Positions 54,931-57,900 of a stretch of 64,000 bases of DNA are shown piece after piece. Made by a program: the position numbers and the translations under genes. Under the pieces are notes generated by a model that saw nothing but the letters and a program-made list of their open reading frames with translations, did no database searches and had not been told where the DNA came from. Origin of the DNA: Escherichia coli (GTDB taxonomy: Bacteria > Pseudomonadota > Gammaproteobacteria > Enterobacterales > Enterobacteriaceae); assembly GCF_017348835.2 (NCBI RefSeq), contig NZ_CP071375.1; one strand, given 5' to 3'. Positions within the stretch are counted from its first letter, which is position 1. Each line of letters begins with the position of its first letter.

Positions 54931-57900
54931 ATGAACAAAATATTTAAAGTCATCTGGAATCCGGCGACGGGCAGTTATAGCGTTACCAGCGAAACGGCAA
55001 AAAGCCGTGGCAAGAAATCTGGTCGCAGTAAGCTGTTAATTTCTGCACTGGTTGCGGGTGGAATGTTTTCGTCGTTTGGGGCATTGGCGAATGCCGGGAA
55101 TGACAACGGTCAGGGAGTTGATTACGGTAGTGGATCAGCTGGCGACGGCTGGGTTGCTATAGGCAAAGGGGCGAAAGCAAATACTTTTATGAACACCAGT
55201 GGTTCCAGTACTGCTGTGGGTTATGAAGCTATAGCTGAAGGCCAATATAGCTCTGCCATCGGTTCAAAAACCCATGCGATTGGTGGTGCATCAATGGCGT
55301 TTGGGGTTAGTGCAATATCAGAAGGCGATAGAAGTATAGCACTGGGTGCCTCTTCGTATTCATTGGGCCAATACTCAATGGCCCTCGGCCGTTATTCAAA
55401 AGCATTGGGTAAATTGTCTATTGCTATGGGGGACTCTTCCAAAGCGGAAGGAGCAAACGCCATTGCACTGGGGAATGCCACTAAAGCTACTGAGATTATG
55501 AGTATTGCTCTTGGCGACACCGCCAATGCGTCAAAAGCGTATTCAATGGCGCTGGGTGCAAGTAGCGTCGCATCCGCAGAAAACGCAATTGCCCTGGGGC
55601 GTAGCAGTGTAGCTAGCGGTACTGACAGCCTCGCATTTGGCAGACAATCACTTGCCAGTGCAGCAAACGCTATTGCGATAGGTGCTGAGAGCAAAGCCGC
55701 TGAAAATGCGACGGCCGTTGGTACCAAAGCGGAGGCCAATGGACTTAATAGTATCGCGTTGGGCTCTGGGGGTATTGCAGATGCCGATAACACGATTGCT
55801 CTGGGCAATCAAAGCCTGGCAGTAGCTGCTGGTGCAATTGCTATCGGTCAGGGGAATAAAGCTGACGGCGCAAATGCTATCGCGCTGGGTAATGGTAGTG
55901 TTACAGGTGGCGCAAATGCTATTGCTCTTGGACAAGGTAGTTATGCCGGTTTAGAAAATGGCATTGCAATTGGTGGTCAAGCCAGTGCTCAAGGGACAAA
56001 TTCCGTTGCTCTGGGTGCGGGTTCTGTAGCGACTGAAGATAATTCCGTCTCTGTGGGTAACACAACAGATCAGCGAAAAATTGTCAATATGGCAGCAGGT
56101 GATATCAGCACTAGCAGTACTGATGCCATAAATGGATCACAGCTTTATGCTATCAGTAAGTCAGTAGCGGACCGTCTTGGTGGGGGGGCTACCGTCAATG
56201 CGCAAGGTGTCGTTACTGCCCCGAATTACAGACTGAAAAATGGTATTTATGGCAATGTTGGCGATGCTTTAGCGGATCTAAACAATAACACGATACAATG
56301 GGACTCCGTTAAAAAGGGATATAGTGCGGCACATGGTACAGATGCCACCAGCACCATCACCATCACCAACGTTAAAGCCGGCACTATTTCTGCTACCAGT
56401 ACGGATGCGGTTAACGGTTCTCAGCTGAAAGCTACCAATGACGATGTCGAGGCCAATACCGCCAATATCGCTACTAATACCAGCAACATTGCCACGAATA
56501 CGGCAAGTATTGCCACCAACACCACTAATATCACCAACCTGACGGATTCCGTTGGTGACCTTAAGGATGATGCCCTGCTGTGGAATGACGCTAAAAATGC
56601 ATTCAGTGCAGCTCATGACAAGGATACAACCAGCAAAATCACCAACGTTAAAGATGGCGACCTGACGGCTGGCAGCACCGATGCCGTTAATGGCTCTCAG
56701 CTGAAAACCACCAACGATGCTGTGGCGACGAATACCACCAATATCGCCAATAACACTTCCAATATTGCCACTAACACCACCAACATCTCTAACCTGACTG
56801 AGACGGTGACTAATCTTGGTGAGGATGCGCTGAAATGGGATAAGGACAGTGGTGTCTTCACGGCAGCACACGGCACCGAGGCCACCAGCAAAATCACCAA
56901 CGTTAAAGATGCCGACCTGACGGCTGACAGCACCGATGCCGTTAACGGCTCTCAGCTGAAAACCACCAACGATGCTGTGGCGACGAATACCACCAATATC
57001 GCCACTAACACCACCAACATCTCTAATCTGACTGAGACGGTGACTAATCTTGGTGAGGATGCGCTGAAATGGGATAAGGACAATGGTGTATTCACGGCAG
57101 CTCATGGCAACAACACCGCCAGCAAAATCACCAATATCCTGGACGGCACAGTCACAGCAACCAGTTCTGATGCCATTAACGGTAGCCAACTTTATGACTT
57201 AAGCAGCAATATCGCCAGCTACTTCGGCGGCAATGCTTCTGTGAATACTGACGGTGTGTTTACCGGTCCAACCTACAAAATCGGTGAAACAAATTATTAT
57301 AACGTCGGCGATGCACTGGCTGCGATTAACTCCTCATTTAGCACGTCTCTCGGCGATGCCCTGCTTTGGGACACTTCCGTAGAAAAATTTAGTGCCAAAC
57401 ACGGTACTAATGGTGACGCAAGCGTGATCACTGATGTCGCAAATGGAGATGTTTCAAGCACAAGCTCTGATGCTGTGAACGGCTCGCAACTCTATACCAC
57501 CAATAAGTACGTCGTAGATGTGTTGGGTGGTGGTGCCGAAGTCAATGCTGACGGCAGCATCAGTGCGCCGACTTATACTATCGCAAACACAGATTACGAT
57601 AATGTCGGTGATGCCCTGAATGCTATAGATACCACTCTTGACGACGCCCTGCTCTGGGATGCGGACGCCGGTGAAAATGGTGCATTTAGCGCCGCTCACG
57701 GAAAAGATAAAACTGCCAGTGTAATCACTAACGTCGCAAACGGTGCAATTTCCTCCACCAGCAGCGATGCTGTGAACGGCTCACAACTCTATACTACCAA
57801 TCAGTACATTGTCGATGCGCTGGGTGGTGATGCAGAAGTTAACGCTGACGGCACCATCACTGCGCCAAGTTACACCATTGCGAATACCGAGTACAACAAC

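Follow-up and report, generated by a model that had tools for sequence, protein, structure and literature searches.

The tandem module array in the stalk of an EhaG-like trimeric autotransporter adhesin of Escherichia coli probably changes in length by whole modules and single heptads

Introduction

The closest described relatives of the adhesin studied here are EhaG, which Totsika et al. reportedly described in 2012 from enterohaemorrhagic Escherichia coli, UpaG, which Valle et al. reportedly described in 2008 from uropathogenic E. coli, and SadA of Salmonella enterica, whose fibre structure Hartmann et al. are said to have assembled in 2012 from fragments (2yo2, 2ynz, 2yo3, 3zmf, 2yny, 2wpq, and 2wpr). 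EhaG, UpaG, and SadA have been described as positional orthologues (PMC7247748; PMC11054257), and EhaG and UpaG reportedly mediate aggregation, biofilm formation, and binding of extracellular-matrix proteins (PMC7247748; PMC12525524). Size variation among strains has been reported for the E. coli adhesin Saa (PMC7247748). In BadA of Bartonella henselae, the number of domains varies among isolates, which was put down to recombination or reshuffling, and long reads were needed to resolve the repetitive domains (PMC8859334; PMC9602544). Authors have called the BadA stalk a spacer and an 'evolutionary toolbox' (PMC9602544; PMC8859334). Here we analysed a 64,000-nucleotide (nt) stretch of E. coli DNA (contig NZ_CP071375.1, assembly GCF_017348835.2; hereafter the window), whose forward strand carries the gene for an adhesin of 1615 amino acids (aa) with an array of tandem repeats in its stalk.

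We propose, with a probability of roughly 0.85, that the three repeat units of this array are consecutive stalk modules of an EhaG-like adhesin and that the length of the array changes in two quantised ways, by whole modules and by single 21-nt heptads. Like EhaG, the window adhesin is encoded between the yibL and sadB-like genes and lldP, and it has the same overall architecture and an identical array of modules of 92, 85, and 78 aa (92/85/78). Unlike EhaG, which has 1616 aa, it has 1615 aa, and its head and first FGG-containing stalk unit are diverged.

Results

Units of the repeat array

The repeat array was located at 56380–57144 (765 nt), in frame inside the adhesin open reading frame (ORF), in agreement with the in-frame tandem repeats that a previous sequence-only reading had placed at 56379–57150. 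A repeat search found in-register copies starting at 56380, 56656, 56911, and 57145, at successive distances of 276, 255, and 234 nt. In the register of the sequence-only reading, the three units U1, U2, and U3 occupy 56380–56655, 56656–56910, and 56911–57144; they are 276, 255, and 234 bp long and encode 92, 85, and 78 aa, each being one 21-nt heptad shorter than the previous one. About three near-identical 255-bp units with few substitutions had been proposed. The number of units held, but only U2 has the proposed size, and substitutions are few only in the first two thirds of U2 and U3, not in their last third or in U1. A 22-letter protein motif quoted for the ends of the units was found in U2 and U3. 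Tandem Repeats Finder detected a 234-nt period at 56759–57182 (83% matches) and 21-nt arrays at 56453–56531 and 56734–56787 (2.6–3.8 copies, 70–75% matches).

The units were not equally similar to one another. An ungapped neck-to-neck comparison of U2 with U3 showed 31 mismatches in 234 positions (203/234, 87% identical); identity was 97.4% in the first 156 nt and 65.4% in the last 78 nt. A gapped alignment of the two gave 93%, and we preferred the ungapped figure with its 97%/65% split. The likeness of U2 and U3 is far beyond chance, because they have an exact tract of 58 nt in common. U1 is 77–78% identical to U2 and U3 at the nucleotide level, and its longest exact tract with either is 28 nt. 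The mean column identity across the three units was 82%.

Structural assignment of the units

Domains were assigned by sequence match to solved SadA fragments, according to which each unit reads as a known stalk module composed of a neck, a coiled coil, and a DALL connector. In all units, a DAVNGSQL neck is followed by a coiled coil of IxxNTxx heptads, a DALLW or DALKW...AAHx...ITNV connector, and the next neck. With the neck leucine taken as position a, the heptads have L, V, I, I, I... at a and T, N, N, N... at d. The IxxNTxx pattern is said to be the 'N@d' motif described by Hartmann et al. in 2009, in which asparagines at d reportedly hold anions in the coiled-coil core. Such heptads, of the form ATNTxNI, number four in U1, three in U2, and two in U3, and the modules therefore differ in size (92/85/78 aa). 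A DALL motif leads straight to the neck in each of U1–U3; the published rules are that a DALL motif directly precedes a neck (PMC2373917) and that DAVNxxQL is a neck starting a coiled coil (PMC7247746).

A sequence search of the PDB returned the SadA fragments 2yo2, 2ynz, 3zmf, 2yny, 2wpq, and 2wpr and the AtaA fragment 3wpa, with E values from 1e-6 to 1e-27. The fragment 2ynz aligned at E = 2e-18 to query residues 124–222, comprising the U2 coiled coil, DALL, and neck, and 2wpq and 2wpr matched the U1 coiled coil. The FGG part of the units downstream of the array was covered by 2yo2 and 2yny of SadA and by 3wpa of AtaA. A review lists 2ynz and 2yo3 as DALL alpha-to-beta connectors and 2yo2 as FGG (PMC7247746).

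When parsed by motifs, the three modules lie on the forward strand at 56404–56679 (U1, 92 aa, with four N-at-d heptads, a DAVNGSQL neck, and a DALL connector), 56680–56934 (U2, 85 aa, three N-at-d heptads), and 56935–57168 (U3, 78 aa, two N-at-d heptads). The alignment of modules further assigned U2 to a 'middle' type and U3 to a 'last' type, and the diverged 3' third of U3 runs into the FGG units. Four tandem 21-nt units, recognised from the 21-nt period and the heptad read-out, were found in U1 at 56449–56532 on the forward strand, and their heptads include ATNTTNI. The alignment of U2 with U3 placed the extra 21 nt of U2, GCCAATAACACTTCCAATATT, at 56746–56766 on the forward strand; this stretch encodes one heptad that is absent from U3, and it is flanked by the direct repeats CCAATATC-GCCA and CCAATATT-GCCA.

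Length variation of the array among strains

Alleles were compared in two samples, namely the best 120 of 8000 homologue matches and 14 complete genomes from an evenly spaced match list. Such repeats had been proposed to allow expansion or contraction of the array, and a comparison of repeat number among strains had been suggested as a check. The module number did differ between strains. In the 14 complete genomes, the module count ranged from 1 to 6 and the protein length from 1447 to 1821 aa, while the C-terminal architecture was constant. The proposal was further supported by an allele with eight modules, by steps of 7 aa in module size, and by a hybrid module in strain 2017.02.04CC, which are described below.

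Among the best 120 of the 8000 homologues, we found the three-module series 92/85/78, 92/78/78 (1606 aa), and 92/85/85 (1620 aa). Four modules were arranged as 92/85/85/78 (1698 aa; 45 clusters with the exact series and one more with a variant U1), as 92/85/78/78 or 92/78/85/78 (both 1691 aa), and as 92/85/85/85 (1705 aa); in the 1705-aa alleles, as many as three middle-type units separate U1 from the last module. UpaG-like arrays in the same sample had five to eight modules of 69–79 aa in proteins of up to 1942 aa, the maximum of eight modules, of 76–79 aa each, being found in the 1942-aa allele.

Module sizes stepped by 7 aa, as 69 and 76 aa and as 71, 78, 85, and 92 aa. Alleles that are 98–100% identical to that of the window also differed by exactly 7 aa in protein length (1606, 1613, and 1620 aa), and the difference mapped to the modules. 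U1 had 92 aa in every EhaG-type allele examined, and the changes fell in the middle and last modules. Among the parsed EhaG-type complete genomes, the middle type (U2) was present in 0–2 copies, with no separate copy in 2017.02.04CC and two copies in F9792. All observed changes of the array were in frame, being multiples of 21 nt or whole modules, so that neither the reading frame nor the register of the coiled coil is disturbed.

A third and finer level of length variation was observed just ahead of the array, in a beta-strand leading to a neck. Here, at 56353–56364 on the forward strand, allele comparison revealed an (ACCATC)x2 hexanucleotide repeat encoding TI-TI in '...TSTITITNV'. Alleles at least 98% identical had one, two, or three copies, giving proteins of 1613, 1615, and 1617 aa.

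Recombination between modules

Strain 2017.02.04CC carried an adhesin of 1538 aa, exactly 78 aa shorter than EhaG of strain 88_1577 (1616 aa). In place of U2 and U3 of 88_1577 it had a single module, which resembled U2 in the 5' part and U3 in the 3' part at every informative site. The crossover fell within a 62-nt tract where U2 and U3 are the same, and the background was otherwise identical to EhaG. We read this hybrid module as the trace left by unequal homologous recombination, or by slippage, between the two units.

Modules nearly or completely identical to one another were found in three other strains. EC21Z-147 had three tandem 234-nt modules that were 100% identical (locus coordinates 1001–6253), CUVET19-1704 had two (locus coordinates 1819–6468), and the two middle modules of F9792 were 97% identical. 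The complete identity of the modules in EC21Z-147 and CUVET19-1704 points to very recent duplication. The comparison of alleles thus supports the view that the array expands and contracts among strains through recombination between its copies.

In the mechanism that we propose, unequal homologous recombination or replication slippage would add or remove whole modules of 234 or 255 nt, and the exchange would take place in the 5' two thirds, which are nearly identical between the middle and last module types. Single 21-nt heptads would be gained or lost between short direct repeats, and the repeats flanking the extra 21 nt of U2 are a plausible short-homology substrate for the gain or loss of one heptad. 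The fixed ends of the array would be the diverged U1 on one side and, on the other, the 3' end of the last module. An imperfect 21-nt repeat encodes each heptad, and both types of change would keep the frame and the coiled-coil register.

Alternative explanations

The modules might instead be ancient and fixed repeats that form a static spacer, with the differences among strains reflecting old divergence and allele replacement by horizontal exchange. Such an origin would be compatible with the conserved array length of many EhaG genomes, with the clustering of modules by position (first, middle, and last) across alleles and not by allele, and with the mosaic structure of the window allele, which shows that exchange between alleles occurs. 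We nevertheless consider it quite unlikely, given the single-heptad differences among alleles 98–100% identical to that of the window, the U2/U3 hybrid with its mapped crossover in an otherwise EhaG-identical background, and the 100%-identical modules within one gene, which suggest recent duplication.

Several points weigh against the rearrangement of modules and heptads that we favour. The 92/85/78 array was unchanged in length, at 95% identity, in the best-listed complete EhaG genomes. Because this array length is stable across E. coli lineages, rearrangement would be occasional and not a fast switch. Recombination with imported alleles, and not within the gene, could account for some architectures, the window allele itself being a mosaic. 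The allele samples comprised the best 120 of 8000 matches and 14 genomes and were not a full census. In addition, the N-at-d assignment is based on the sequence pattern and on what Hartmann et al. reportedly described in 2009.

The copy number in the window could also be an assembly artefact caused by repeat collapse or expansion, to which the sequence-only reading had considered such repeats prone. Exact tracts shared between the units reach 58 nt, and other strains do carry alleles with four modules, so that a collapse of four modules into three is conceivable in principle. We rejected this explanation as very improbable, because the exact 1615-aa protein occurs in independent assemblies, on 12 contigs of other assemblies including a 250-kb draft contig of GCA_009647465.1, and because the array aligned collinearly with the listed complete genomes. 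In the best-listed complete EhaG genomes, 56380–57444 aligned as one gap-free piece of 1065 nt at 95% identity. The three modules recurred in 26 sequence clusters of relatives of 1613 aa with 98–100% identity, some of which lie on chromosomes of ~5 Mb. Furthermore, the units are 13–23% diverged overall and of unequal length, and an array of 765 nt is easy even for short reads. The concern about collapse thus does not apply to this window.

The alleles truly exposed to assembly collapse are those of EC21Z-147 and CUVET19-1704.

A contingency locus, in which a fast and reversible slipped-strand switch would vary the adhesin within a clone during infection, is hardly credible: in-frame 21-nt and 6-nt repeats do vary among near-identical alleles, and slipped-strand mispairing has been proposed for the BadA stalk (PMC8859334), but the 21-nt arrays are short (2.6–3.8 copies) and imperfect (70–75% matches) and hence poor substrates for slippage when set against classical contingency repeats, all changes are in frame with nothing switched on or off, array length is conserved across very many genomes, and the array has no long, near-perfect tract of short units of the kind that defines on/off switching.

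The adhesin gene and its locus

The window sequence matched, at 100% identity, the chromosome of F2_81 (NZ_CP043542.1, assembly GCF_900196535.2), an E. coli strain isolated from the rectum of a pig. The adhesin gene (54931–59778, forward strand), identified from its ORF, translation, Pfam matches, and coding sequence (CDS) identity, was 100% identical to the F2_81 CDS WP_096220418.1, which is sited between a sadB-like gene and lldP. Its RefSeq name is 'YadA-like family protein' and not EhaG. Pfam identified an extended signal peptide region (ESPR), YadA_head in 15 stretches, YadA_stalk in 12 stretches, and YadA_anchor, and on these ESPR, head, stalk, and anchor matches we classify the protein as a trimeric autotransporter adhesin. 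The same matches bear out the earlier placement of the repeats in an adhesin stalk. On the forward strand, the ESPR comprises aa 1–48 (54931–55074; PF13018, E = 5e-15), and the C-terminal YadA-like membrane anchor comprises aa 1555–1615 (59593–59775; PF03895, E = 5e-19), with a score of 68.5 bits against a cutoff of 22.7. Motif parsing found ten DA[VI]N..QL necks. The features of type Vc secretion, namely a C-terminal YadA-like anchor, a passenger of head, neck, and coiled coil, and an ESPR-type signal peptide, were all present. From homology to the solved trimeric SadA fragments, the adhesin would be expected to form a surface-exposed homotrimer.

NCBIfam was tried for naming the adhesin as EhaG or UpaG and was set aside, as it had no such hidden Markov models; only the distant 'exception' models Ata, EmaA, YadA, and BimA matched, all far below their cutoffs.

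The repeat array is not isolated within the gene. It is flanked by four longer, related units containing FGG, one upstream and three downstream. Module parsing placed the upstream unit at aa 398–491 (56122–56403, forward strand; 94 aa, 282 nt), with a layout of neck, FGG insert, and DALL-like connector. The three downstream units, each with an FGG insert, lie at 57169–58050 on the forward strand and have 100, 99, and 95 aa (300, 297, and 285 nt).

The gene order of the locus is mtlA-mtlD-mtlR-yibT-yibL-sadB-like-adhesin-lldP-lldR-lldD. Two marks of the EhaG/UpaG/SadA group, the location between mtl-yibL and lldPRD and the SadB-type gene upstream, were found, and alleles annotated as ehaG or upaG occupy the same locus context in other E. 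coli genomes. We assign the adhesin gene as an EhaG-like allele within the EhaG/UpaG/SadA group of positional orthologues. Directly upstream, at 54204–54887 on the forward strand, is an ORF for a lipoprotein of 227 aa, whose RefSeq name is 'SadB/YajI family lipoprotein' in F2_81 and DUF3251 in other strains. It had no significant Pfam-A or NCBIfam match at the thresholds used, so its SadB-like identity follows the RefSeq annotation. SadB is reportedly required for the surface display of SadA (PMC7247746).

An antisense ORF of 303 aa with a TTG start (56278–57189, reverse strand) spans the repeat array. It matched no Pfam family and lies inside a conserved sense gene, and we rejected it as spurious, most likely a by-product of the codon composition of the repeats.

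Signs of decay of this locus were observed in three strains. The sadB-like and adhesin genes of OkiPb01695 were truncated and annotated as pseudogenes (locus coordinates 3042–6823), the sadB-like gene of FDAARGOS_1295 had an internal stop (locus coordinates 274–957), and IS1 was found upstream of the sadB-like gene in strain 4/4 (locus coordinates 849–1546).

Mosaic structure of the window allele

The identity of the window adhesin to EhaG at the amino acid level varied along the protein, being 84% in the head, 64% in the first FGG unit, 94% in the array, 90% in the FGG triplet, and 93% in the C-terminal part. The corresponding values against UpaG were 62%, 61%, 65%, 73%, and 95%. The first FGG unit was 81% identical to that of the M11957/N1131 lineage. 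As the head (84%) and the first FGG unit (64%, against 81% to M11957/N1131) depart from EhaG, the window allele is an EhaG-like mosaic. Megablast matches of many EhaG genomes began exactly at 56380, where U1 starts; this suggests that alleles recombined with one another at a breakpoint in a conserved neck.

Discussion

Consequences of stalk length variation

Changes in the array would be expected to alter the length of the adhesin fibre. One heptad would add ~1 nm, as seven residues rise by 0.148 nm each in a coiled coil, and one module would lengthen the fibre by several nm. For scale, SadA with 1461 aa is ~108 nm long (PMC7247746). Stalk length may affect how far the head projects beyond lipopolysaccharide (LPS), capsule, or fimbriae; LPS and fimbriae have been reported to mask SadA (PMC7247748). 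Additional DALL-neck units may also add matrix-binding surfaces, by analogy with what has been proposed for BadA and fibronectin (PMC9602544), and UpaG binds fibronectin and laminin (PMC12525524). Module changes would probably alter the exposed epitopes and hence antigenicity.

A further idea, which we regard as doubtful, is that this two-level, register-preserving length polymorphism, with modules of 69–92 aa and heptads of 7 aa, acts as an adaptive 'ruler'. If so, it would tune the projection of the head against the thickness of O-antigen or capsule, or the number of DALL-neck matrix-binding surfaces, and across E. coli the numbers of modules and heptads would be expected to vary together with serotype or niche. 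No correlation of module or heptad number with serotype or niche was found in the accessible literature.

Both EhaG and UpaG count among the candidate vaccine antigens of pathogenic E. coli and among its adhesion or biofilm factors (PMC7247748). The location of the length-variable parts of the stalk matters for antigen design, for polymerase chain reaction and typing schemes, and for the reading of draft assemblies. Judging from the alleles compared, length varies in the middle and last modules and in the heptad tracts; U1, the FGG triplet, and the C-terminal 575 aa are fixed.

Comparison with known systems

UpaG of the CFT073 type is a positional orthologue of the window adhesin with the same grammar of neck, N-at-d coiled coil, and DALL, and its C-terminal 575 aa are 95% identical. 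Unlike the window adhesin, it has 1778 aa and five modules of 78/78/78/71/71 aa, with the signature residues DAVNGLGDDSLLWNK. SadA of S. enterica, of 1461 aa, is likewise a positional orthologue with a SadB lipoprotein partner (PMC7247748; PMC7247746), and its fragments align to the window modules with E values from 1e-6 to 1e-22, which is the basis of the neck, DALL, FGG, and N-at-d assignments. It belongs to a different genus, however, and differs in the number and order of its modules.

BadA of B. henselae resembles the window adhesin in its repeated stalk domains of coiled coil and DALL-neck, with or without FGG (PMC9602544; PMC8859334), but the sequence relationship is at the level of motifs only. 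Moreover, BadA has ~30 domains and a gene island with pseudogene donors, whereas the window has three units, plus four of the FGG type, and no flanking pseudogene copies. Set beside these proteins, the array is a known kind of feature, with the textbook modular repeat dynamics of a trimeric autotransporter stalk, and it is not a new system. Its only mildly new points are the heptad-quantised series of module lengths, the mapped crossover, and the observation that only modules of the middle and last types vary.

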